DNA of 64,000 nucleotides from a phage: the sequence record PX930851.1, one strand, 5' to 3'. The notes beneath the pieces were generated by a model. It was not told the DNA's origin. It made no database searches and was given only the letters and a program-made list of their open reading frames with translations. Positions 3,169 through 28,282 of the stretch are shown here, piece by piece; the first letter of the stretch is position 1; each line of letters starts with the position of its first letter. Position numbers and translations under genes: made by a program.

Positions 3169-4371
3169 TTATTTTGTAATAATGTCAAACTGTTCTTTAA
3201 AGCAGAAGCTTGAATCTTGATGCTGATACAAAAATTCATAAGCTTTTTCACGTTCACGGTCATAAAGAGCTCGGTCAGATGACAGTTCTTTAATACGTTC
3301 AAATGTTGATTCCATGTCATTTTCATCAAACCAAACGATACCGCTATCATGAGAAATTAATGGAGTATTATCAACACGGAATTTTAAATTTTCGCCCGTA
3401 GATTTCCAAAATACCGGAATTGTTCCACATGCACCAAGCTCGAGATGAGTGTATTCTAAAGAACGTTGTAGATATTTTTTATCCAACTTACTCAACTGAT
3501 AACCAAAACCGGATTTACTCATACGTTCAAGCATTTCGCTATTTACATAACGGTCAAGAATTTGCGTTGGCAAATTAGGAGCAATTTTAATTTGGTCTAC
3601 TTGATGAAGACGATAATACTCATATGGAATTCCTTTTTCTTTAATAGGAATGAACGCAGGAGAACGTTCCAGACCTTCCATAATAGTACTTAGCCCAGCA
3701 GGTTTAAGATGTTTTTCGTGAAAATCAAACATCTGATAAAAACCTTTCCATGTAGTCGTACGACCAATCCAACGGTTGATATTCATGTTAATTTCAGAAA
3801 CATCTTTCCAGTAGGTTGATCGAACCTTCGCAATATCCATCGGAGGCTGAAAGTTATATACTGTCGGTGCTTCTTCAATATCATCAAACAGAGAAACAGT
3901 TTCTGGATACCACTCTTTCATCAGAACTTTATTAAAATCACCATTATCGGAATGGCTAAAAATAACATCAGCTCGACGAACAGTTTCTTCTAATCCCAAA
4001 TTTCGACGCAAAGAAAGAGAAGAATGGTCATGCTGATAAACTACAACACGAACCGAAGGTTTAATGTTATCAATAATTTTTTTATAGTTATTAATAGTGT
4101 CTTCTTCAACTGAAGTAGCAGGAACTGAATTGATAATTAGAATATCACAATCATTTACCAGCTTAAGTGTTTTATCATATTCTTTTGCCAATAAAACCGG
4201 AATTGAAAATGATTTATAATCATGCGCGCAATTACGAGTAAATGATTTATCTTTAGCATAAACCAAAGTTACTTCATGACCATTTTTAATAAACCAATCA
4301 CGTTGCTCAAGAGAAAATTTAGTTACACCGCAACCTTCAAGACCTCGAGCCATAAAAATACATACTTTCAT
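3169..4371 (-). CDS. a-gt: DNA alpha-glucosyltransferase
   Basis: 400 aa, same length as T4 alpha-GT; N-terminus M-x-ICIFMARGLEGCGVTKF recalled for T4 a-gt; synteny 47/a-gt/55. Confidence 0.88.
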   Translation of the reverse strand: MKVCIFMARGLEGCGVTKFSLEQRDWFIKNGHEVTLVYAKDKSFTRNCAHDYKSFSIPVLLAKEYDKTLKLVNDCDILIINSVPATSVEEDTINNYKKIIDNIKPSVRVVVYQHDHSSLSLRRNLGLEETVRRADVIFSHSDNGDFNKVLMKEWYPETVSLFDDIEEAPTVYNFQPPMDIAKVRSTYWKDVSEINMNINRWIGRTTTWKGFYQMFDFHEKHLKPAGLSTIMEGLERSPAFIPIKEKGIPYEYYRLHQVDQIKIAPNLPTQILDRYVNSEMLERMSKSGFGYQLSKLDKKYLQRSLEYTHLELGACGTIPVFWKSTGENLKFRVDNTPLISHDSGIVWFDENDMESTFERIKELSSDRALYDREREKAYEFLYQHQDSSFCFKEQFDIITK

Positions 4372-4395
4372 TTAATATCCTCTTTGTTTTGGTTT

Positions 4396-4419
4396 ATTTT
4401 ACCAAAAATTTATAAAGCA
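4396..4419 (-). promoter_or_regulatory. candidate MotA-dependent middle promoter upstream of a-gt
   Basis: MotA-box-like TGCTTTA, 11-nt spacer, -10 TAAAAT (minus strand). Confidence 0.45.
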
Positions 4420-4424
4420 ATATA

Positions 4425-4438
4425 GGAGCCGAAGCTCC
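4425..4438 (-). terminator. UUCG-tetraloop hairpin (terminator or RNA-stability element)
   Basis: GGAGC-UUCG-GCUCC; no clear U tract; second hairpin at 4461-4480. Confidence 0.3.
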
Positions 4439-4608
4439 TATCCGCATAATACACCGTATAGAGGCTCATTAGAGCCTCTAAATTTTATACGCTTATATGT
4501 TATAGTTCCTTCTGCTTTAGCTTTATCATGAGACTCTTTAAAGCGTCTCATCATTTCCTCTTTAGAGGAACGAATTTTATTATCTATTTCAGAAGTCTGG
4601 GTGTTCAT
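4438..4608 (-). CDS. possible small ORF, 56 aa; doubtful
   Basis: ATG at 4608 after upstream stop; reading frame passes through two hairpins, which argues against coding. Confidence 0.25.
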   Translation of the reverse strand: MNTQTSEIDNKIRSSKEEMMRRFKESHDKAKAEGTITYKRIKFRGSNEPLYGVLCG

Positions 4609-4611
4609 CTT

Positions 4612-4818
4612 TCATAACTGCCACCATTTTTTGACTTGATAAGAATCAACCCACACTTTCATATTAGGGTCTGCTCTTACAATAGGAGGATTAACTTCTT
4701 TAATTGAACTATCATGGTATTCTTTTTCAGAAATTTTCACACAAAGATGACCATTCAAAGATTCAGTAAATCCTGCATTAATTTTAAGACGCTTGAATTT
4801 TACGTGTGTAAGCATCAA
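4612..4818 (-). CDS. hypothetical protein, 68 aa
   Basis: ORF track; compact arrangement with neighbours. Confidence 0.45.
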   Translation of the reverse strand: MMLTHVKFKRLKINAGFTESLNGHLCVKISEKEYHDSSIKEVNPPIVRADPNMKVWVDSYQVKKWWQL

Positions 4819-5101
4819 TCATATCCTCAATCTGTGATCTAGTAGTCTTCCAAAGAATACTGATGAGTTCATCGTTATATGGCTGTTTTAGAATATCCCG
4901 ACTTTTCTTGATAGCATATTCGTATTGAGCAAAATTATTATTTTCAGCTGCGATCTGAGCGTGCTTATAAAGACGATTCAGTTCGCGTTTGTTTTTAGAC
5001 AATAACTTATTTGCTTTTCTTTCTGCTTCAAGACGGTTCTTTTCTTCAATAGAAGAAATAAGCTTTTCAACTTCATCATTAATTTCGGGTTTATCAGTCA
5101 T
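4784..5101 (-). CDS. hypothetical charged/coiled-coil protein, 105 aa
   Basis: ORF track; K/E-rich helical composition. Confidence 0.55.
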   Translation of the reverse strand: MTDKPEINDEVEKLISSIEEKNRLEAERKANKLLSKNKRELNRLYKHAQIAAENNNFAQYEYAIKKSRDILKQPYNDELISILWKTTRSQIEDMIDAYTRKIQAS

Positions 5102-5102
5102 A

Positions 5103-5321
5103 TTATTTCTCTAATATAAAATAAAAATCATCATCTGTTAAATGATACCTGTAATTTAATTCTACACCATTAGATTTAAAAGCGGTATCATACGGATTTT
5201 CTGGATCAATATCAATGTCAAGAGCTAAAACTTCCCTGAGATACATTTTAAGTAAATAGGGAATAGCTTCAACTTCAGGTATTTCTTCCAAGAATCCGGA
5301 GAGGTTAATCGTTAGCCTCAT
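5103..5321 (-). CDS. hypothetical protein, 72 aa
   Basis: ORF track; start overlaps gp55 stop region. Confidence 0.5.
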
Positions 5322-5862
5322 ATAAAAAATCCAAACTAGGAGAATCGTCTACAACACTTTTCTTTTCAGCCCCCGGTGTTCTATAGGTTGATTCTTCGTA
5401 ATGCGTCATTTTATCATAGATGTCTTGAATAAAAGTTTCATCTACTAACGCAACCATATCGTCGTCACGACTGTCATAGACATTGTGAACGAAGTAACTA
5501 TATTTCTTTGCAACTTCCTTACGTTCTTTTTTAATACGCTGGACGAATGCATTAAAACAAGCTTGAGTTATATATGCATGTGGGTTTTTATATTTCGTTT
5601 CATCAAAATTGTGAAGCCCCTTAATAGAAGCTTCTATACCATCTGCAATCATTTCTTGTTTCCAAGACTGGGTGTATCCTGAAAAGTTGAAACGCTTAGA
5701 TAAGCCTTCTGCAATAAGCATAATGGCTAATCCGATAGTATCATTCTGACGAACTACTTTATTTGGGTCTTTATTATTTGCTAATTCTGTTTTCCAATCA
5801 ATAATAGCTTGTAAAAGCTCTTTATTGTTTACGTAATTATATTTAGGCTTAGTTTCTGACAT
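5305..5862 (-). CDS. 55: gp55 late-transcription sigma factor
   Basis: 185 aa from second Met ([20 protein letters not shown]... as recalled for T4 gp55). Confidence 0.9.
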
Positions 5863-11501: not shown

Positions 11502-11987
11502 TCAAGTATTGTAAAACATTTGATTCAATCGCTTATATTGCCGAATCTTTTGGTCAGAAAAAGAAATTTGGGTTTCAAGCCATTCAATATATTCTGCCGC
11601 AGCTTGCATCAAATTTCCTTCATAGCCATCGTTATTTTCTTGTGCAGCTAATTTAGCTAATGCGTACGGAATACGTTCACCTTGAAAATCGGCTTTAGGC
11701 TTCTGAACAACTTGATTAGTTCTCTCTACAACTTCCTCGATTTCACCATTTTCTACTGATTCAGTATTCCACAAGCACCAATACGCAGTTGGCTTATCGT
11801 AGATGTTAATAATCTTTCCATCAGAAAGTTCAATTTCAATAATTCCAGTATCAGGTTCTATATCATCTTCACATTCTTTTACAAGTTCACGAACTTTAAA
11901 GACAGTACCTGCACTAAGTTCCGGCCAGTAATTACATAGCTCTTTATCAGCACGATTAATTCTAAACCACTTATCTACTGTAATCAT
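11502..11987 (-). CDS. hypothetical protein, 161 aa, at the position of T4 pin
   Basis: start moved to ATG 11987 (MITVDKW...); identity by synteny and length only. Confidence 0.5.
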   Translation of the reverse strand: MITVDKWFRINRADKELCNYWPELSAGTVFKVRELVKECEDDIEPDTGIIEIELSDGKIINIYDKPTAYWCLWNTESVENGEIEEVVERTNQVVQKPKADFQGERIPYALAKLAAQENNDGYEGNLMQAAAEYIEWLETQISFSDQKIRQYKRLNQMFYNT

Positions 11988-12141
11988 GTCCCATCTCCAT
12001 ATCAATTAAGTCATTTATCGTTGGTTCATTATACATCGTTTCTTCATCAGTGTAAACCGGTTCTTCCGGCTCTGGCTCTACAGTTTCCCATCTAGCCGCC
12101 CACCAAGGTTTAACCCCGAAGCTTATTAAGTTCTTCATCAT
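11971..12141 (-). CDS. small ORF, 56 aa
   Basis: below track cutoff; overlaps neighbours by short overlaps. Confidence 0.3.
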   Translation of the reverse strand: MMKNLISFGVKPWWAARWETVEPEPEEPVYTDEETMYNEPTINDLIDMEMGHDYSR

Positions 12142-12280
12142 CAATCCAGGATTCTAGTCCTGTTGGCAGGTCACATTCAATTTCCCAAAGAAGTTCTTCA
12201 ATTTTCTGAAGACGATCTAGTTCTTCGGCTGGAATAGTAACCATTGACGGAGTTCGTGATACATTAATATCGTAAATCAT
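12110..12280 (-). CDS. small acidic ORF, 56 aa
   Basis: below track cutoff; ATG 12280. Confidence 0.3.
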   Translation of the reverse strand: MIYDINVSRTPSMVTIPAEELDRLQKIEELLWEIECDLPTGLESWIDDEELNKLRG

Positions 12281-12282
12281 AT

Positions 12283-12498
12283 TTACCCCAATTTAGCCAT
12301 ACAATCGCCGTATTTCCACTTAGAAATAGACTTTTCACCATTAGAATAATAAACTTCGAGTTTAGCACGATTATTTTTAATTTGAATAACCTTGGCTGTC
12401 ATCAAAGTTCCATACCCATAATAAACTGCAACTTCATCACCTACATATACCACGCTTCCGCGGTAATCGTGAATATAGTCAGTTCCTTCGAGCATCAT
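12283..12498 (-). CDS. hypothetical protein, 71 aa
   Basis: ORF track; overlaps nrdC stop. Confidence 0.5.
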   Translation of the reverse strand: MMLEGTDYIHDYRGSVVYVGDEVAVYYGYGTLMTAKVIQIKNNRAKLEVYYSNGEKSISKWKYGDCMAKLG

Positions 12499-12758
12499 TT
12501 AAAATATTCTCGCAGTTGGTCAAATCCACCAATATGACTTCCATCAGGAGCAAATACCTGGGGCATTGTCAAGCCGATTTGAGTATCACGACCTAGTTTA
12601 GTCAGAAGCTCAGCGATTTTCTCATCATCAAAAACACCTTTTTCCGGCATAATGTTGATAAATTCAAACGGCTGTTTCTTCACGGTCAAAAGACGTTTTG
12701 CATTATCACAATACACACATTTATGAATGTTGCTATCATAACCATATACTTTAAACAT
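12495..12758 (-). CDS. nrdC: thioredoxin/glutaredoxin
   Basis: 87 aa; MFKVYGYDSNIHKCVYCDNAK... with CVYC active site as recalled for T4 thioredoxin. Confidence 0.85.
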   Translation of the reverse strand: MFKVYGYDSNIHKCVYCDNAKRLLTVKKQPFEFINIMPEKGVFDDEKIAELLTKLGRDTQIGLTMPQVFAPDGSHIGGFDQLREYFK

Positions 12759-12759
12759 A

Positions 12760-13002
12760 TTATTCCTTAATTCCTAGTACTTGTTTAAAAGTCTCGTCGT
12801 AATCAAGACTTTGGCACGTTTGTTCTTTATGTTTGTATATAATATCACTTACTTCTGATAGCATATTTTTATATGAACGAGTTAAAGCAGATTTAAGCAC
12901 GCTGTATCTATCAGGAAATTTACCGTGTTCATTATAATAAGCTATTGCTAATTCACGGACTGCCTTTTCAGCAGTCTCCATATATTCTTTACGCTTGGTC
13001 AT
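12760..13002 (-). CDS. hypothetical protein, 80 aa
   Basis: ORF track. Confidence 0.5.
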
Positions 13003-18805: not shown

Positions 18806-19774
18806 TTATTTCAGAAGAGTAACCTCAGCGATTTCTTCCCAACCGTTTTTGTCGGTCATAATAAAGTCAGCAAGATAAAGTGCAGTACGCAGTGAAACAT
18901 TGCGTAAACGGTTAACATTGACTTTCATCCATGATAATGCTTTATAAGTTTCTTCATCAGAAAGACCGCGTTTTTGCATCATGTCAGTTGAAAGAATAAC
19001 ATCTTCAACCCTGACCATAATTTCTTCATTAGTGTGAACACCCAAATCTAAATAAACTGAGCGGGAAACTAATGCTTGTAAATGTGGAGCAAGTTTAGTA
19101 CCACGGTCTAATTCGCGGTCAATGTCAACGTTTGTGATAAAAACAATCGTTCCTTTAAATTCAAACTCACGCTCAATGCCTTTTTCTTCTAAGTAAGAAG
19201 ATGCGGTGCTCCAGCAGACTTTACGGGTCTCTCCGGTGTCCAGAGCAGCTTTCAGAAGATTAAGAATGTCCATATCAGAGAAAACATCCACATCATCAAT
19301 CAAAAGGACAGAATTCTCTTCACGATTATTCCAAAGCTGTTCATAAAGACCGATACCAGAGATTTTACCATTAATGCTTTTATATTCGATGTATCCAATA
19401 TCATTTGCTTTATTTAAAGCTTTATCTAAAGAATACGTTTTACCAATACCTGCTGCTCCAGAGATAATTAATGAACGAATGTTTCCGTTAATAATACCAT
19501 TCGTCATCATTCCCATAACATTAAATCTTTTATTAATGCGGGTTTTCATATCTTCATACGATTCTTTAACTTCTTCAACTTTTACACCATCATATGAAAT
19601 GTCTGATTTGTAAACCCAAACACCGCGACGCTTACCGTCAATTTCAACAAAAACTTTACCATCTCCTTGTGCATCTACCGGAGCATTATCTGGGAACCAT
19701 TCACCTAAGAGCTCAAAAGTTCCAGAGATTTCTTTACCGAAGTAGATACCCTTATTGATAGTTACAGTTTTCAT
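18806..19774 (-). CDS. P-loop NTPase (AAA-like ATPase), 322 aa
   Basis: Walker A GAAGIGKT; Walker B VLLIDDVD; start at ATG 19774 (GGAG RBS) below early promoter. Confidence 0.65.
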   Translation of the reverse strand: MKTVTINKGIYFGKEISGTFELLGEWFPDNAPVDAQGDGKVFVEIDGKRRGVWVYKSDISYDGVKVEEVKESYEDMKTRINKRFNVMGMMTNGIINGNIRSLIISGAAGIGKTYSLDKALNKANDIGYIEYKSINGKISGIGLYEQLWNNREENSVLLIDDVDVFSDMDILNLLKAALDTGETRKVCWSTASSYLEEKGIEREFEFKGTIVFITNVDIDRELDRGTKLAPHLQALVSRSVYLDLGVHTNEEIMVRVEDVILSTDMMQKRGLSDEETYKALSWMKVNVNRLRNVSLRTALYLADFIMTDKNGWEEIAEVTLLK

Positions 19775-19810
19775 TTTATTCTCCAATTTTACATTTGTTT
19801 TGATAGGGTA

Positions 19811-19840
19811 ATAATATCACACTACTACCCTGCTGTAAAC
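19811..19840 (-). promoter_or_regulatory. phage early promoter
   Basis: -35 GTTTAC, 18-nt spacer, TGTGATATTAT; upstream of ATPase gene. Confidence 0.55.
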
Positions 19841-19843
19841 AAT

Positions 19844-20107
19844 TTATTTTAATGTTTGCCAAATTTTTACTGCTTCACGACGAGATACTTCTACAGCTCC
19901 AAGTTCTACAGCTTTTTGGCGTCGCCGAGCGTGTAAGTCATAATGTTTAATGCGTTTATCTTGAAACCAAGAACGTTTCATTCCTATTGCTTCTGCCATT
20001 TCGTGAAGCTCTTCAATATCTCCATCAGTGAACATATGACAATTTTTAGTTGGATGACCGCGAAGTTTCCATCCATGATTCATTAAAACATCTACGTAAA
20101 CTGTCAT
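19844..20107 (-). CDS. hypothetical protein, 87 aa (resembles DUF4031-type small phage proteins, from memory)
   Basis: MTVYVDVLMNHGWKLRGH...HYDL pattern. Confidence 0.45.
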   Translation of the reverse strand: MTVYVDVLMNHGWKLRGHPTKNCHMFTDGDIEELHEMAEAIGMKRSWFQDKRIKHYDLHARRRQKAVELGAVEVSRREAVKIWQTLK

Positions 20108-20253
20108 TGATTCTTCTCCAAATAAGTTTCGATAATTTTCTGGGCGAGATAAACCGCGTTATCTTCAGTTGCGTCTTCCAAGAAACTTTCAAAACACTCT
20201 GAAATTTCTTCTGTATCAATCAACTTTTTTACTTCAATTGGTGTAATTTTCAT
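20104..20253 (-). CDS. small acidic ORF, 49 aa
   Basis: first ATG after early promoter 20290-20319; stop overlaps next ATG. Confidence 0.35.
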   Translation of the reverse strand: MKITPIEVKKLIDTEEISECFESFLEDATEDNAVYLAQKIIETYLEKNQ

Positions 20254-20289
20254 TTTGTTTTCCGTTTAAGTGTTTGTTTTGATAGTTGT

Positions 20290-20319
20290 ATAGTACCATA
20301 AAGCTTTATGCTTGTAAAC
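20290..20319 (-). promoter_or_regulatory. phage early promoter
   Basis: -35 GTTTAC, 18-nt spacer, TATGGTACTAT; UP element AAAAATTTTTCACAAAAC; immediately downstream of terminator. Confidence 0.6.
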
Positions 20320-20340
20320 CGTTTTGTGAAAAATTTTTGA

Positions 20341-20367
20341 AATAAAAAAGGGAGCCCGAAGGCTCCC
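20341..20367 (-). terminator. intrinsic terminator after nucleotidyltransferase gene
   Basis: 7-bp stem GGGAGCC-UUCG-GGCUCCC followed by UUUUUUAUUU. Confidence 0.7.
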
Positions 20368-20369
20368 TA

Positions 20370-21383
20370 TCATTTATAATAACTTCGATGGTTTTCAAGA
20401 TAAACCTGTTCGAGGAAATTATTCCAAAAGCTCATATCTACTGTTTTAGGCATACCGTTCTTAGAAGCTTCAGTAGATGCTGCTTCTACTTGATCAACCA
20501 CATCTTCCAAAAACTCTTGAACTGTTTTAAATGGATGTTTACCCAGCTTCACGTCGAGAATAAATGGAGCATCTTGGAGTGGATAAACCAAGTCGCCAGT
20601 TTTGTAAATTTCCAATAGTTGAAGTCCACCACGACAAGCATGACTTAGTGCTTTCCAGTCAATGCCTTCATTAGCTTCGGCTTTACGAGCACGTTCACCA
20701 TATTCAGCATCTAATTTATTCAGTGACTGCTTAAGCTCGATAAGAGAAAGTGTTGTCTGATATTTACGACCCAACACAGTGTAGAACGTTTGCGGGCCTG
20801 TTTTCTCGTGATTATGGAACACCCATTCACAGAACTCATTTTCAGGGAGTCTGTGTTTGATATCTTCTATCTTAGTACGACGAAGTCTATCAGGGATTCC
20901 TTCTTGATAGTCGACCCACTGGTCAGGGATTTGATTAACTACTTTTAATACATCACGTAATGCGGCCAAACGAGAACCCTTGACACCGTATTTAGAAGCT
21001 TGCTTGCGGACATATCCTAAATAGGATTTCATGTTAGTTGTATAAAACCGTGAACGATTGTCTTGGATAAATTTCCATACATCAGGCAAATCAGATTTAA
21101 CCACTAGTTCAGGCGGAGTGTGAAGCATATCCAATGCTACAGTTTCACCATCTGCTGCTAATTTAAAGAAATACTTAAGACTGTATAGTTCATGGTCAAT
21201 ATCATCTTTAGTGTTTTTAGATGATGTGTTGTTAGTGTTTTTACTCATATGCTCTTTAACATTTCCGATAAGAATATCGCGAGCACGAGGAACAAAGATT
21301 TCTTTAAAATCTACATCAGATTCTGGAGTAGAAGTTCCATAAAGATGACTACCAAAATAGCTTTTCATTACTGTTTTCATCAT
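20370..21383 (-). CDS. predicted Pol-beta-superfamily nucleotidyltransferase, 337 aa
   Basis: N-terminal motif YFGSHLYGTSTPESDVDF (G-S...D-x-D) and later hxhD (VALDMLH); start overlaps upstream TM gene stop. Confidence 0.6.
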   Translation of the reverse strand: MMKTVMKSYFGSHLYGTSTPESDVDFKEIFVPRARDILIGNVKEHMSKNTNNTSSKNTKDDIDHELYSLKYFFKLAADGETVALDMLHTPPELVVKSDLPDVWKFIQDNRSRFYTTNMKSYLGYVRKQASKYGVKGSRLAALRDVLKVVNQIPDQWVDYQEGIPDRLRRTKIEDIKHRLPENEFCEWVFHNHEKTGPQTFYTVLGRKYQTTLSLIELKQSLNKLDAEYGERARKAEANEGIDWKALSHACRGGLQLLEIYKTGDLVYPLQDAPFILDVKLGKHPFKTVQEFLEDVVDQVEAASTEASKNGMPKTVDMSFWNNFLEQVYLENHRSYYK

Positions 21384-21841
21384 TCAGCCTTATATTCAAT
21401 AACAGGACATACTTTAGCTTTACGAGCTTTTAAAAATTCGACGATAATAGATTTCTTGGGTTGAATAGGAGGTAAACCTTTATACGCCCTATCAATATTT
21501 TCTACATGTAAAGCATAATCCTTTTTCCATTTATAATCTTTATATTTTTCACGCAAATGTGCAGGAATAACAAATGAACCGATAATAAGTAAAACAACCA
21601 AAAGCGCAAGTATAAATGCTGATGGAAGCAAAGTCCATAAACTACCAAAAATAAGCCAGCGCTGTAAACTTTCTGCACAAATAATTGTCAGCCCTACGAG
21701 TATAGCACACCCAAAAATAGAAACGAAAAATGTAGGGATAACAATAGACCAAAAGTATGCACATAGCGTCTTAGGTCGTTGCCATTCGTCGTTAAACAAT
21801 TTGAATAATTTATAATGCCAAGAGTTTTCATTAATAATCAT
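21380..21841 (-). CDS. membrane protein, 153 aa, three predicted TM helices
   Basis: three hydrophobic stretches in the N-terminal 100 aa; basic C-terminal tail. Confidence 0.6.
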   Translation of the reverse strand: MIINENSWHYKLFKLFNDEWQRPKTLCAYFWSIVIPTFFVSIFGCAILVGLTIICAESLQRWLIFGSLWTLLPSAFILALLVVLLIIGSFVIPAHLREKYKDYKWKKDYALHVENIDRAYKGLPPIQPKKSIIVEFLKARKAKVCPVIEYKAE

Positions 21842-21843
21842 AA

Positions 21844-22365
21844 TTATCCTTTCATTGGAGGCGTAACGGTTGTTAAATACTTAATCATAGCTTCAGCTTC
21901 TGATTTTGATAATGAAATTTCTTCATTGTTTTGACGAATAGAAATAAAATCCGGATGACGGTCACCACCAGCTTTTAAAACACACATATAAGTATCAACT
22001 TCGCCTTCAATATTTGAAATGATTGAAGCAGTTCCACATGAATGCGGTTTTTGATAAATCAATACAGCTTTTCTTCCACCGTTTGACTGTTCATAGGCTT
22101 TTAATACATCAAGCAAATCAGTTCTTTTATCAATAGCTAAAATATTATTTTCATCTTCAATGTTAAATCCTTCGGATACTTCATAAAGCGTTACCCATAA
22201 ATCACCGATGTCAATAACAGCATTTACTTTTCCACGGCTTTCAAGAGTATGACAAATTTTCTTGATTTCGTCATAACTCATTTTAATAATATCATCTCCT
22301 TGACTAAGAAAGATGTCATTTTTAAATTCAACACGAATTAAACCACTTCCACTTGAAATAAACAT
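21844..22365 (-). CDS. hypothetical protein, 173 aa
   Basis: ATG 22365 with GAGGAAAT RBS; C-terminus resembles upstream neighbour. Confidence 0.55.
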   Translation of the reverse strand: MFISSGSGLIRVEFKNDIFLSQGDDIIKMSYDEIKKICHTLESRGKVNAVIDIGDLWVTLYEVSEGFNIEDENNILAIDKRTDLLDVLKAYEQSNGGRKAVLIYQKPHSCGTASIISNIEGEVDTYMCVLKAGGDRHPDFISIRQNNEEISLSKSEAEAMIKYLTTVTPPMKG

Positions 22366-22371
22366 ATTTCC

Positions 22372-22905
22372 TCACTTTGAAATCATAGTTGGAATGACAG
22401 AATCAAGATAAGTCTTTAGTGCAATAGCTTCGTCTTTGGTAAATGTGACAATATGTGCTCGAGAATCATCAATTTGGCGAATAGTTAAGACATCTCCCTC
22501 TTCATAACATTTTGATACATTTAAAAGAGTTTCATCATTCTGATTGCAATCGTTAGTAATAATAGCATTGCAATTTTTGAGCCATTTTAAACTATGTTTT
22601 CTTTCATTAGAATAATAAAAATATTTAATCTTAGCTATAAAACTATCCCAATGAATAACTGATAAACACATTGACTCACTTTTAATATTAAATCCTGGGC
22701 ATGAAGAATAAAAATGAATTTTGTGCTCATCATTGATGCTTACTATTTTATCAGTATAAGGATATTCAATTTGGGTTAAATGAATGATTTCACTAGGCGT
22801 AAAATACAGCATATCGTCTTCTTGCGTCAAACGATACATGTTATTTACTTTTTCTATAGCCAATTCACCAAAAAGCGGACTAACTTCTAATACTAATCGT
22901 TTCAT
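22372..22905 (-). CDS. hypothetical protein, ~177 aa
   Basis: track start at 22929 is non-ATG; ATG 22905 (MKRLVLEV...) preferred. Confidence 0.5.
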   Translation of the reverse strand: MKRLVLEVSPLFGELAIEKVNNMYRLTQEDDMLYFTPSEIIHLTQIEYPYTDKIVSINDEHKIHFYSSCPGFNIKSESMCLSVIHWDSFIAKIKYFYYSNERKHSLKWLKNCNAIITNDCNQNDETLLNVSKCYEEGDVLTIRQIDDSRAHIVTFTKDEAIALKTYLDSVIPTMISK

Positions 22906-22931
22906 ATTGATTCTCTTCGACTCGCTCACAA

Positions 22932-23036
22932 TTACATACTCCTTTGAATAATATCAATAATGTTGTTCACCAGATTATAAGTAAACATTGGGTAATTATA
23001 TTGAATCATCACATACACAACAAACAAAACTTTCAT
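22932..23036 (-). CDS. possible leader peptide/small hydrophobic ORF, 34 aa
   Basis: ATG 23036 with AAGGAG RBS, ~20 nt downstream of early promoter. Confidence 0.25.
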   Translation of the reverse strand: MKVLFVVYVMIQYNYPMFTYNLVNNIIDIIQRSM

Positions 23037-23064
23037 TCTCTTCTCCTTGGCAGTTGACAAGATT

Positions 23065-23094
23065 ACTATACCACAACCTTGCCAACTTGTAAAC
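23065..23094 (-). promoter_or_regulatory. phage early promoter
   Basis: -35 GTTTAC, 18-nt spacer, TTGTGGTATAGT. Confidence 0.6.
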
Positions 23095-23096
23095 CA

Positions 23097-23270
23097 TTAA
23101 ATGACGTTTTCAATAAAATTTTGAAGCTTTGTGTGAGCATCAACCATGATTTTCATTTCTTCTTTGGCGAAAGCTGTACCTCTTTCCCGAGAAGAACACT
23201 CATAGTCAGAAACTGCATTAGCATATTCTTCAATTAGTTTCATTAAAAACATCTGCTTTTCAGTTTTCAT
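23097..23270 (-). CDS. small ORF, 57 aa
   Basis: below track cutoff; ATG 23270. Confidence 0.35.
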   Translation of the reverse strand: MKTEKQMFLMKLIEEYANAVSDYECSSRERGTAFAKEEMKIMVDAHTKLQNFIENVI

Positions 23271-23454
23271 TATTCCACCTAATTATTTCAAGATATTGAA
23301 CTAACTTAGCTTTAGATTTATCCAAATCCTTTTTAGCTGCTTCTATACCGTCGTATGAATATCCTTCACAATGCTCAACTGCTAATTGATATGAATCTAT
23401 TTCAACATCACGTGCTAATTTAATGATTTTTTCAAACTGTTCATGTGTTAGCAT
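23260..23454 (-). CDS. hypothetical protein, 64 aa
   Basis: ORF track. Confidence 0.45.
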   Translation of the reverse strand: MLTHEQFEKIIKLARDVEIDSYQLAVEHCEGYSYDGIEAAKKDLDKSKAKLVQYLEIIRWNNEN

Positions 23455-24887: not shown

Positions 24888-25469
24888 CTAACCGAGCTTT
24901 TTAGTTAATTCGTTCCAGTGTTTTCTACACAAAGAAACATAAATTTCATCACCAATACAGATTTGATTACCTTCTTTAACTGGTGTTCCATCTTCCATCA
25001 ATCGAGCTGTCATAATCGCTTTTTTGCCGCAATGACAAACTGCCTTTAGTTCAATAAGTTTATCTGCAATCGCTAAAAGTTCTTTAGAACCTTCAAACAA
25101 TTTTCCAGCGAAATCAGTCCTTAATCCATAAGCCATAACAGGAACATTATATGTATCAACAATTCGGCTTAATTGGTGCACCTGTTCAGTTTTTAAAAAC
25201 TGAGCTTCATCTACAAATACGCAATGAATATCTTTTTGTGCTTCAGCCCATTTATAGAACTCGAAAATATCCATATCATCTGTAATAATATTCGCTTCCT
25301 GTTTAATTCCAATGCGAGAAACAACTTCACAGACAGAATCGCGAGTATCAATAGCAGGCTTAAGAACTAATACACCCATTCCACGTTCTTTATAATTATG
25401 TGCAGCAGTCAAAAGAGAAGCAGATTTTCCAGCATTCATTGCTGCATAAGTAAAAATTAAACTCGCCAT
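24888..25469 (-). CDS. tk: thymidine kinase
   Basis: 193 aa; P-loop AAMNAGKS; C-terminal Zn-binding cysteines CHCG...C. Confidence 0.92.
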   Translation of the reverse strand: MASLIFTYAAMNAGKSASLLTAAHNYKERGMGVLVLKPAIDTRDSVCEVVSRIGIKQEANIITDDMDIFEFYKWAEAQKDIHCVFVDEAQFLKTEQVHQLSRIVDTYNVPVMAYGLRTDFAGKLFEGSKELLAIADKLIELKAVCHCGKKAIMTARLMEDGTPVKEGNQICIGDEIYVSLCRKHWNELTKKLG

Positions 25470-25659: not shown

Positions 25660-25841
25660 AATGAATTTATATAATCAATGAGTTCTTGTTCTTTATTATC
25701 GAATTCTTTAGAAAGTTCTTCGTACTCGTTTGCACTAAAAGGACCGCATTCATTACAAACTTTTTCCAATTCGCTATTTTTATCCATAACTTCGTGGATA
25801 AGAGAAAAGAGTTTGTCTTTTTGTTCTTTACTCAGACTCAT
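25656..25841 (-). CDS. small acidic protein, 61 aa
   Basis: ORF track; paralog-like to 25471-25659. Confidence 0.5.
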   Translation of the reverse strand: MSLSKEQKDKLFSLIHEVMDKNSELEKVCNECGPFSANEYEELSKEFDNKEQELIDYINSL

Positions 25842-26007
25842 ATATTAAATCCTAGAAGTTTTAAGATAATTCGCTTTTGCTTAAATATTTCTATCGTTAA
25901 ATGATCAGTATCTTTTTGACCAATTCCAATAGCAAAACCCTTATTTACGGCAAGTTCAATTAAATTATCAATATTGCGTAAAACTTCATAGCGTAACTCA
26001 AAACTAT

Positions 26008-26235
26008 TCATTTTGGTTTACCTTCTTTAACGAAATCAGGATAAGGATAAAATCCTGAATAAAATCCTTCACCTTTATGATTGATGCATCCTTTATTAGA
26101 ACAATAGCACCAATAATCGAAATCACAAGCCATTTCATCGTTGCATAAAGCAAAAACAACCGGCCACTTACACTTTTCACAGTGGGCATTTTTAAGAATA
26201 CTAGTTTGGCTCATAACCATGTAACCTTTAAGCAA
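26008..26235 (-). CDS. cysteine-rich small protein, ~70 aa; start uncertain
   Basis: CEKC...C...C...C pattern suggests metal binding. Confidence 0.45.
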   Translation of the reverse strand: MLKGYMVMSQTSILKNAHCEKCKWPVVFALCNDEMACDFDYWCYCSNKGCINHKGEGFYSGFYPYPDFVKEGKPK

Positions 26236-26423
26236 TATTCTTCTACATGTTGTTTACGACCTTTCTTATCAATAAAGGTATATTCAACGAATGTTCCAAT
26301 GTAGTCTTTATCTACATCATGTGGACTATTAATTGGACATTTAGTGCGGCAAATGCGTTCCCATTGACGAATAATTACTGCTTTGTTTTTAGGATCAAAC
26401 GGATGTGGGTAATGTACTTTCAT
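26211..26423 (-). CDS. hypothetical protein, 70 aa
   Basis: ORF track. Confidence 0.5.
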   Translation of the reverse strand: MKVHYPHPFDPKNKAVIIRQWERICRTKCPINSPHDVDKDYIGTFVEYTFIDKKGRKQHVEEYCLKVTWL

Positions 26424-26874
26424 AATCCACCACTATTAAATCAATATCAGGAGTAAACATGTCGATTAATTTAGAAACTTTATCCCAATCGCCGCCAGCA
26501 ATACCACAACCTATACGTGGAATGTAAATTACCGGTTTAAACAAAAGGGTTTCTGCCTGTAGATTTAATTCTATCATGCAGTTTACTAAAGCACCATAAT
26601 CAAGATTAGGACCTGGTTCGTATTGCGTATACAAGTTATAACATATGCCAAACCCATTAGGTTTATGTTTAAAAACAATAGACACATCACCGAGTTTTTC
26701 ACGCGAACCATATTCAGTTGTGGTCTTATCTATTTCTAAAATTTTGGGATAGGCTCTTGCTAATTGACCAGCTACACCACTGCCCATTGTATGAAAACAG
26801 TTACACCCGTGCGCAATAATATTACCTTCAAGAAAGAGGGCGACAATATCGCCCTTGATATATTTTACAATCAT
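26395..26874 (-). CDS. macro-domain-like protein (predicted ADP-ribose binding/hydrolase fold), 159 aa
   Basis: GDIVA...IIAHGCNCFHTMGSGVAGQLA and IPRIGCGIAGGDW align by eye to macro-domain GDIT...NAAN...GGGV and ...GIYG motifs. Confidence 0.6.
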   Translation of the reverse strand: MIVKYIKGDIVALFLEGNIIAHGCNCFHTMGSGVAGQLARAYPKILEIDKTTTEYGSREKLGDVSIVFKHKPNGFGICYNLYTQYEPGPNLDYGALVNCMIELNLQAETLLFKPVIYIPRIGCGIAGGDWDKVSKLIDMFTPDIDLIVVDYESTLPTSV

Positions 26875-27218
26875 CTAGTACTCAATCCTCGATTATAAGA
26901 ATCTACTAAACGGTCAACCATTGAATGACAAGCGGCTTTATCTTTTTCCTCCGCAACTGAACATTCTAGGGTATTCCACTTTTTAGCATATCGTTTTAAT
27001 AATGTATCGTTTTTGTATCTGCTTGATTTATCTCTTTCTCCGTCTTTATATGCATATATTAATTTCTGCGCAAATTCAGCTTGGCATGCTTTATTTTTCC
27101 CACAATAATCTGCCGCAGTGCGGTTCACATACTCCCTAATTTCAGTATATGATGTATCTGCTGACGCATAAGCAGAAAATGAAATTAATCCTATACATAA
27201 AACCAAAATTTTAGTCAT
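26871..27218 (-). CDS. small secreted/periplasmic protein, 115 aa
   Basis: signal-peptide-like N-terminus MTKILVLCIGLISFSAYASA; four Cys. Confidence 0.55.
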   Translation of the reverse strand: MTKILVLCIGLISFSAYASADTSYTEIREYVNRTAADYCGKNKACQAEFAQKLIYAYKDGERDKSSRYKNDTLLKRYAKKWNTLECSVAEEKDKAACHSMVDRLVDSYNRGLSTR

Positions 27219-27763: not shown

Positions 27764-28225
27764 TCATTGAGTTTTAATTACTGCTTTAGAAGCCTTTCCT
27801 GGTAAACGACGACTGTTGATAATTGCCATCCTACATTGAAGTGACGGGTCTTTGAACTTCTCATTAGGCTTACAAACCGTAAATCCAAGCCAAAGATTTC
27901 CATCTGTAATTTCTAAACGTCCAGGGCGATATTCAACTCCATCAATAAAATCCTCATCAATGTCAGGACGCGGAGGCATACTCAGGAATTCATTAACTTC
28001 TAAAACATGGTCTTTTATTTTATGGAATAATTCAAAAACATATGTCTCATCAATCTCCCGTTGAATTGCACGATCAAGAAGATGTTGAGAATATTTTAGA
28101 TGAAACGATGAGACTCCTGCTGCTTTTGATGCCTCACGAATCTCATTGTTAATTTGACGAAACTCCGACTCAAAATGACGACGAAGCTTATTTCGACGGA
28201 TAAAAACTTCTGTATTGATAGTCAT
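27764..28225 (-). CDS. regB: RegB site-specific endoribonuclease
   Basis: 153 aa matching T4 RegB length and N-terminus as recalled; own early promoter; synteny. Confidence 0.8.
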   Translation of the reverse strand: MTINTEVFIRRNKLRRHFESEFRQINNEIREASKAAGVSSFHLKYSQHLLDRAIQREIDETYVFELFHKIKDHVLEVNEFLSMPPRPDIDEDFIDGVEYRPGRLEITDGNLWLGFTVCKPNEKFKDPSLQCRMAIINSRRLPGKASKAVIKTQ

Positions 28226-28252: not shown

Positions 28253-28282
28253 ATTATACCACAGTCAAGAGGAAAAGTAAAC
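28253..28282 (-). promoter_or_regulatory. phage early promoter upstream of regB
   Basis: -35 GTTTAC, 18-nt spacer, TGTGGTATAAT. Confidence 0.65.

Follow-up and report, generated by a model that had tools for sequence, protein, structure and literature searches.

A glutamine-type macrodomain protein of a T4-like phage is the orthologue of T4 Tk.4 (AdfM) and a relative of ADP-ribose-1''-phosphate phosphatases

What is the function of the 159-residue protein encoded between the genes tk and regB of a T4-like phage (Tequatrovirus)? The gene is positioned on the minus strand at 26395..26874 of a 64,000-nucleotide stretch of DNA (sequence record PX930851.1, hereafter the window), with the start codon ATG at 26874 and the stop codon at 26395, and it encodes a single macrodomain. 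A sequence-only reading described the product as a macro-domain protein that could reverse ADP-ribosylation-based defence or regulate the ADP-ribosyltransferases of the phage itself. The gene is a known one, tk.4 of phage T4, also named adfM, and the finding is therefore not novel. The selected function of the protein is probably the removal of DarT2-type ADP-ribose from phage DNA.

The genes of the region are arranged on the minus strand in the order regB (27764-28225), vs.1, vs (26871-27218), the gene of the 159-residue protein, tk.3 (26211-26423), two additional small ORFs, tk.2, tk.1, and tk (24888-25469), and the location in the tk-regB interval given by the sequence-only reading is thus correct. 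The ORF at 26211-26423 is the true orthologue of tk.3. Located between tk.3 and vs, the gene is by synteny the orthologue of tk.4 in T4. The two proteins are homologous over their full length (58% identity over 155 residues, E-value 5e-70) and have similar lengths of 159 and 155 residues. They have identical first 14 residues and share His22, Asn25, and Gln84, whereas 42% of the residues differ. At the DNA level, 569 phage records match the gene, and its identity to the sequence of Escherichia phage EPIMRB01 is 99.4%. The complete genome of EPIMRB01, the nearest relative with this allele, is 166.9 kb long, and its segment 31.6–95.2 kb is collinear with the window.

The genes regB, vs.1, vs, and tk.4 are co-oriented and overlap by 4–8 nt. 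A consensus scan located a sigma-70-like promoter site upstream of regB (28253..28281, minus strand), which has ten of the twelve consensus bases and a TG extension, and the annotation of Yersinia phage fPS-2 has an early promoter at the corresponding position. The site may be the early promoter of the run from regB to tk.4. The same scan found a terminator-like hairpin in codons 7–13 of tk.4 (26837..26855, minus strand; GGGCGA..UCGCCC followed by CUUUCUU), which is 100% identical to the sequence of T4 and coincides with a terminator annotated in fPS-2. The folding energy of the hairpin does not differ significantly from that of shuffled sequence (z-score of -0.99). At the other end of the gene, tk.4 and the start of tk.3 share 29 nt (26395-26423), compared to 4 nt in T4, because the allele is four codons longer and its end is placed differently. 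The two small ORFs between tk.2 and tk.3 (25838-26011 and 26008-26235, minus strand) are missing from this place in T4. The first encodes 57 residues, and the second 68 residues from the ATG at 26214, or 75 residues if translation begins at an upstream TTG. The two ORFs match PHROG 3452 and PHROG 2306, which are both families without an assigned function, and the product of the second is rich in cysteines (CEKCKW...CNDEMAC...CYCSNKGC).

The relationship of tk.4 to macrodomains has been on record for a long time. In RefSeq, T4 tk.4 is described as 'phosphatase; contains A1pp phosphatase motif', the label 'A1pp phosphatase/macro domain' dates from 2003-2006, and the A1pp match of the tk.4 orthologues was published already in 2006. 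Close copies in GenBank are named 'macro domain protein', 'Appr-1-p processing protein', or 'phosphatase'. The sequence-only reading was right about the fold and the location, but missed that the gene is the long-annotated tk.4.

The assignment of the fold is supported by several comparisons, which all agree. The protein matches the Pfam family PF01661 (Macro) with 34 bits at a gathering cut-off of 22 (E-value 3.1e-8), and the alignment covers profile positions 2-117, that is, 116 of 118. PHROG 335 ('phosphatase') is matched with an E-value of 2.5e-71. Searches of PDB sequences retrieved BT1257 (6e-11), Poa1p (2e-9), SCO6735 (8e-8), and the DarG macrodomain from Mycobacterium tuberculosis (3e-5), together with TARG1. 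An AlphaFold2 model calculated from 65 homologues has a mean pLDDT of 94.3 and a pTM of 0.89, and displays the three-layer alpha/beta fold of macrodomains. A Foldseek search with the model gave TARG1 (E-value 1e-10), BT1257, Poa1p, DarG, and SCO6735 as the top matches. The macrodomain resemblance is thus far above chance. Since the nearest structural neighbours are TARG1, DarG, Poa1p, and the pair BT1257 and SCO6735 rather than macrodomains of the MacroD or PARG types, the protein belongs to the TARG1-like (ALC1-like) macrodomains. Among the models of defence systems in PADLOC, only DarG was matched (8.4e-7). DarG is also the best match in NCBIfam (NF048014), with a score of 26.3 bits that is far below the cut-off of 250.

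The four motifs named in the sequence-only reading are present in the DNA, and their mapping to the ADP-ribose-binding loops of macrodomains holds. The motif G8-D9-I10-V11 is located near the N-terminus. The active-site motif H22-G23-C24-N25 (26800..26811, minus strand) is part of the first strand and aligns with H24-V25-C26-N27 of SCO6735; its Asn25 corresponds to Asn23 of PhiKZ AdfM, the residue changed in the N23A mutant of that protein. The first glycine-rich, diphosphate-binding loop, G31-S32-G33-V34-A35-G36 (26767..26784, minus strand), corresponds to MGAGIA in TARG1 and to MGKGIA in DarG. The second glycine-rich loop, I121-G122-C123-G124-I125-A126-G127-G128 (26491..26514, minus strand), differs from the IGAGIGKG of T4 Tk.4. 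Its sequence PRIGCGIAGGDW aligns with PRIGCGLDRLQW of TARG1 and PRIGCGLAGGTW of SCO6735. In the set of 65 homologues, which extends down to 39% identity, His22, Gly23, Asn25, Cys26, Gly33, Ala35, Asn80, Tyr82, Gln84, Pro119, Gly122, Gly124, and Trp130 are invariant, and Cys24 and Gly31 are nearly so. The binding pocket, formed of both glycine-rich loops and the asparagine, is therefore conserved, and the protein is predicted to bind ADP-ribose.

The segment N80-L81-Y82-T83-Q84 (26623..26637, minus strand) contains the residue that distinguishes the protein from the best-known enzymes of its class. Gln84 occupies the column of the catalytic lysine, which contains Lys84 in TARG1, Lys80 in Escherichia coli DarG, Gln85 in SCO6735, and Ser84 in Poa1p. 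The register of this column was established by HMMER and hhalign profile alignments and by local-pair MAFFT, which all agree; a plain MAFFT alignment of seven proteins, which misaligned SCO6735 and BT1257 near the glutamine, was discarded. As judged from the alignments, the whole phage family has an invariant glutamine where DarG and TARG1 have the catalytic lysine. The TARG1 catalytic dyad of Lys84 and Asp125 is replaced by Gln84 and Ala126 in the phage protein. Yeast Poa1p differs by a phenylalanine (Phe152) at the position of Ala126 and by a long insertion that precedes the second loop, in addition to the serine at the glutamine position.

The combination of the glutamine with the His/Asn motif assigns the protein to the TARG1-like macrodomains represented by Streptomyces coelicolor SCO6735 (PDB 5e3b) and Bacteroides BT1257 (PDB 2afc/2fg1). 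However, these proteins are just 27–28% identical to the phage protein, and they are cellular and basic, whereas the phage protein is acidic with a pI of 5.1. SCO6735 lacks both TARG1 catalytic residues, but removes thymidine-linked ADP-ribose faster than DarG and TARG1. Its activity is abolished by the mutations Q85A and Q85E, and the proposed mechanism employs a water molecule held by the backbone of Val25. The enzyme also cleaves uracil-ADP-ribose and de-ADP-ribosylates protein. Lys34 of SCO6735 positions the DNA and is important for activity on DNA, as indicated by the effect of K34E; the equivalent residue of the phage protein is Ser32, and a serine is found in this column of T4 Tk.4 as well.

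DarG and gp104 of PhiKZ, a chimallivirus macrodomain that was independently named AdfM and that removes DarT2-made ADP-ribose from DNA in vitro, retain the catalytic lysine within the sequence FPTK and are just 18–22% identical to the phage protein. DarG from E. coli, for which the 356-residue protein of a genuine darT-darG locus served as the comparator, has a second, C-terminal domain that binds DarT, and it is encoded next to darT. The 159-residue protein has neither the second domain nor the lysine, as Gln84 aligns with Lys80, and its gene is not preceded by a darT gene, although genuine DarTG loci have DUF4433 immediately upstream. One Tk.4-like match, encoded beside a DUF4433 gene on a plasmid of Haliscomenobacter, turned out to be a regular DarG of the lysine type with no special link to the phage family. 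On E. coli plasmid pSTEC1012_1 (1-5450), the comparator locus interrupts a type I restriction-modification operon, with hsdS on one side and hsdR on the other. The presence of Gln84 in the lysine column, together with the parallels to SCO6735, suggests that AdfM of T-even phages is a glutamine-type enzyme chemically unlike DarG and the AdfM of PhiKZ.

The biological evidence comes from T4. Work from 2025 established that T4 lacking both adfA and adfN still resists DarTG2, and a further factor was predicted. In a screen of a T4 transposon library on a host with DarTG2, tk.4 was the only significant hit according to a preprint of November 2025 (bioRxiv 10.1101/2025.11.20.689424). The same source reports that a clean deletion of tk.4 renders T4 sensitive to DarTG2, and names the gene adfM, for anti-DarT factor macrodomain (bioRxiv 10.1101/2025.11.20.689424). 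The evidence presented there is genetic, and the authors write of enzymatic removal of the modification by T4 AdfM that it 'seems likely' (bioRxiv 10.1101/2025.11.20.689424). Our search of the literature for biochemistry of T4 Tk.4 returned no more than this genetic finding and the early annotation of the domain. The proposal of the sequence-only reading that the protein counteracts ADP-ribosylation-based defence matches the screen and the knock-out published for the T4 orthologue, as far as that preprint describes them. The DarTG2 phenotype belongs to the T4 allele alone, and because 42% of the positions differ from the tested protein, the activity of the present allele against DarT2 is an extrapolation. 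The approximately 58% identical allele would act as T4 Tk.4 does, and the phenotype of T4 would be enzymatic.

The mechanism can be proposed by analogy with these relatives. The host toxin DarT2 would attach ADP-ribose to thymidines of single-stranded phage DNA and thus block replication. The macrodomain would hold the ADP-ribose in the cleft between its two glycine-rich loops and cut the bond between ribose and thymine, so that free ADP-ribose is released and the DNA is restored. As the lysine that serves DarG and TARG1 in catalysis is missing, the protein is expected to follow the scheme of SCO6735, in which thymidine-ADP-ribose cleavage depends on the glutamine: Gln84 would place the distal ribose, and a backbone-held water near His22, Gly23, and Asn25 would start the hydrolysis.

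Several properties of the protein speak against the removal of ADP-ribose from DNA. The catalytic lysine of DarG, TARG1, and PhiKZ AdfM is missing, the DNA-positioning Lys34 of SCO6735 is replaced by Ser32, and the protein is acidic. However, DarG of E. coli and PhiKZ AdfM are equally acidic, and net charge and pI were therefore dismissed as indicators of DNA binding, as they do not discriminate. Furthermore, the most similar biochemically characterised protein is not a DNA enzyme but a small-molecule phosphatase, Adpp of Vibrio phage Gary, which acts on ADP-ribose-1''-phosphate (ADPR-1''P) and is 40% identical to the 159-residue protein (E-value 5e-28). The sequence of Gary Adpp was taken from the supplement of a preprint (bioRxiv 10.64898/2026.01.28.702374). 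In hhalign comparisons with the family profile, Gary Adpp (1e-32) precedes SCO6735 (4e-16), Poa1p (5e-14), DarG (1e-11), and PhiKZ AdfM (5e-9). Gary Adpp shares the motifs H-x-C-N-C-F, Y-x-Q-Y, and IGCG-x-AGGDW with the protein and has glutamine at the lysine position, and its His24 and Asn27 correspond to His22 and Asn25. In a rough neighbour-joining tree, the macrodomains linked to NARP1 and the Tk.4-like proteins form one clade, in which all members have the glutamine, and the NARP1-associated macrodomain of Acinetobacter phage phiAbaA1 branches within the Tk.4-like group. By these comparisons, the anti-DarTG2 factor and the ADPR-1''P phosphatase belong to one family. No comparison of AdfM with Adpp appears in the available text of the two preprints (bioRxiv 10.1101/2025.11.20.689424; bioRxiv 10.64898/2026.01.28.702374).

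According to the January 2026 account of the NARP1 system (bioRxiv 10.64898/2026.01.28.702374), Adpp macrodomains of phage NARP1 operons convert ADPR-1''-phosphate to ADPR in vitro. ADPR-1''-phosphate is the product of aRES defence, and its dephosphorylation lets NARP1 rebuild NAD+. Alanine mutants of His24 and Asn27 (N27A) of Gary Adpp lose the anti-aRES activity, and the loss of any one of Adps, Adpp, and Namat abolishes the protection, as described in the same source (bioRxiv 10.64898/2026.01.28.702374). By analogy, the 159-residue protein very probably also dephosphorylates ADP-ribose-1''-phosphate in vitro. It is a different and unlikely proposition that ADP-ribose-1''-phosphate, a product of NAD+ cleavage by RES-type enzymes (aRES), is the main substrate, which would be dephosphorylated to ADP-ribose approximately as the old 'A1pp phosphatase' label implies. 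The relationship to Gary Adpp, whose activity is needed against aRES, with the retention of both mutated residues, the common clade, and the structural proximity of Poa1p, a yeast ADPR-1''P phosphatase, favour this explanation. However, the gene is flanked by vs and tk.3, unlike that of Gary Adpp, which is part of an Adps-Adpp-Namat operon. Tblastn searches identified no homologues of Adps, Namat, or Nampt in the window (no match with E < 0.07) or in the complete 166.9 kb genome of EPIMRB01 (no match with E < 0.9), and neither the window nor that genome contains NARP1 or NARP2 genes. As Adpp needs both Adps and Namat in order to protect, the phosphatase activity would have no pathway to feed in this phage; it may well occur in vitro and yet not be the function under selection. 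Moreover, the table of NARP1-linked macrodomains in the preprint lists no Escherichia phage (bioRxiv 10.64898/2026.01.28.702374), and the T4 orthologue has the reported DarTG2 phenotype. The missing NAD+ pathway and the synteny to T4 adfM favour the role against DarT2.

The sequence of tk.4 diverges from that of T4 in a manner not seen in its neighbours. A sliding comparison with T4 identified a block of 50–80% DNA identity at 26420..26830, flanked on both sides by DNA that is 97–100% identical. The first approximately 15 codons of tk.4 are shared with T4, and the proteins encoded by the eight neighbouring genes rI, rI.1, tk, tk.1, tk.2, vs, vs.1, and regB are 96.8–100% identical to those of T4, compared to 56.6% for Tk.4 in this gene-by-gene comparison. 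The pattern looks like an allele replacement by recombination that was limited to the coding sequence of tk.4. Database matches of tk.4 fall into identity classes of about 96%, 73–81%, 61–67%, and 57–58%, so that at least four classes circulate among T4-like phages.

The confinement of the divergence to tk.4 is what would be expected of contact with a variable host partner, and the protein might counteract DarT2 chiefly as a binder and inhibitor of the toxin rather than by catalysis, with the diversity of the alleles tracking variants of DarT2. The catalytically dead Q85A mutant of SCO6735 still inhibits DarT in vitro, more than the mutants of DarG or TARG1 do. Nevertheless, such a mode of action appears quite improbable, as the residues of the catalytic site are invariant in distant phages, which argues for selection on enzymatic activity, and the phage protein has no C-terminal DarT-binding domain. 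It is still less probable that the protein erases or tunes ADP-ribosylation introduced by the phage itself, namely the marks of Alt, ModA, and ModB on host proteins or the RNA chains linked by ModB. EPIMRB01 encodes modA, modB, and two alt genes, and the activity of SCO6735 on protein provides a precedent; yet the annotation of Alt is that of an arginine ADP-ribosyltransferase, the documented substrates of TARG1-like macrodomains are Glu/Asp esters and thymine and uracil bases, and neither alt nor mod is adjacent to the gene. In the screens described in the preprint, tk.4 is dispensable on E. coli K-12 and is conditionally required only in the presence of DarTG2 (bioRxiv 10.1101/2025.11.20.689424). 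The second suggestion of the sequence-only reading, regulation of the phage's own transferases, is therefore not borne out, although we infer this in part from the substrates of the class. Signals derived from ADP-ribose, such as the cyclic ADP-ribose isomers of Thoeris or O-acetyl-ADP-ribose, could also be bound without catalysis, or degraded, by the protein, given that macrodomains bind many ADP-ribose derivatives, that some relatives are named 'O-acetyl-ADP-ribose deacetylase' in databases, and that Tk.4-like domains occur in entries for 'SLOG family protein' of Bacillus thuringiensis plasmids, but we consider this very unlikely. CmdTAC, an mRNA ADP-ribosyltransferase system, was rejected as a target, because its defence against T-even phages is reported to be effective and is thus evidently not neutralised by their macrodomain.

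It is possible, albeit on balance doubtful, that the clade of T-even Tk.4 and Adpp has a dual-purpose, lysine-free site of His22, Asn25, and Gln84 that clears the C1'' position of ADP-ribose, irrespective of whether the leaving group is thymine in DNA or phosphate in the aRES product. The replacement confined to tk.4 would then result from selection by variants of DarT2, possibly through contact with the toxin.

Other phages and plasmids differ in the context of such genes. The counterpart of the gene studied here is the sole macrodomain gene of the complete EPIMRB01 genome, which contains two adjacent alt-like ADP-ribosyltransferase genes at 19214-23368, and modA and modB elsewhere (11749-12971 of a separately numbered stretch). 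In this lineage, four ADP-ribosyltransferase genes thus accompany one macrodomain gene. In Vibrio phage CZ01 (KVP40-like), the Tk.4 homologue is positioned two genes downstream of pseT and near rnlA (3484-5516), that is, in an RNA-repair neighbourhood of polynucleotide kinase and RNA ligase 1, unlike the position in T4. Plasmids of B. thuringiensis and B. velezensis encode Tk.4-like macrodomains with approximately 28–30% identity in genes annotated as 'SLOG family protein', which suggests fusion proteins that handle ADP-ribose-derived signals.

Three observations go beyond the cited literature: the divergence from T4 is restricted to tk.4; the glutamine is invariant as in SCO6735; and Adpp belongs to the family, while the lineage has no genes for the reconstitution of NAD+. 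The glutamine-type clade thus holds both a reported anti-DarTG2 factor and an ADPR-1''P phosphatase, which may represent one promiscuous enzyme or two specialised ones. Phage AdfM proteins would accordingly occur in two chemistries, the lysine type of PhiKZ and the glutamine type of T-even phages. The picture that T-even phages have layered equipment against DarTG, with AdfA and AdfN acting against DarTG1 and AdfM against DarTG2, is unchanged by this analysis. As a part of that equipment, AdfM bears on the host range of these phages and on the choice of phages for therapy.
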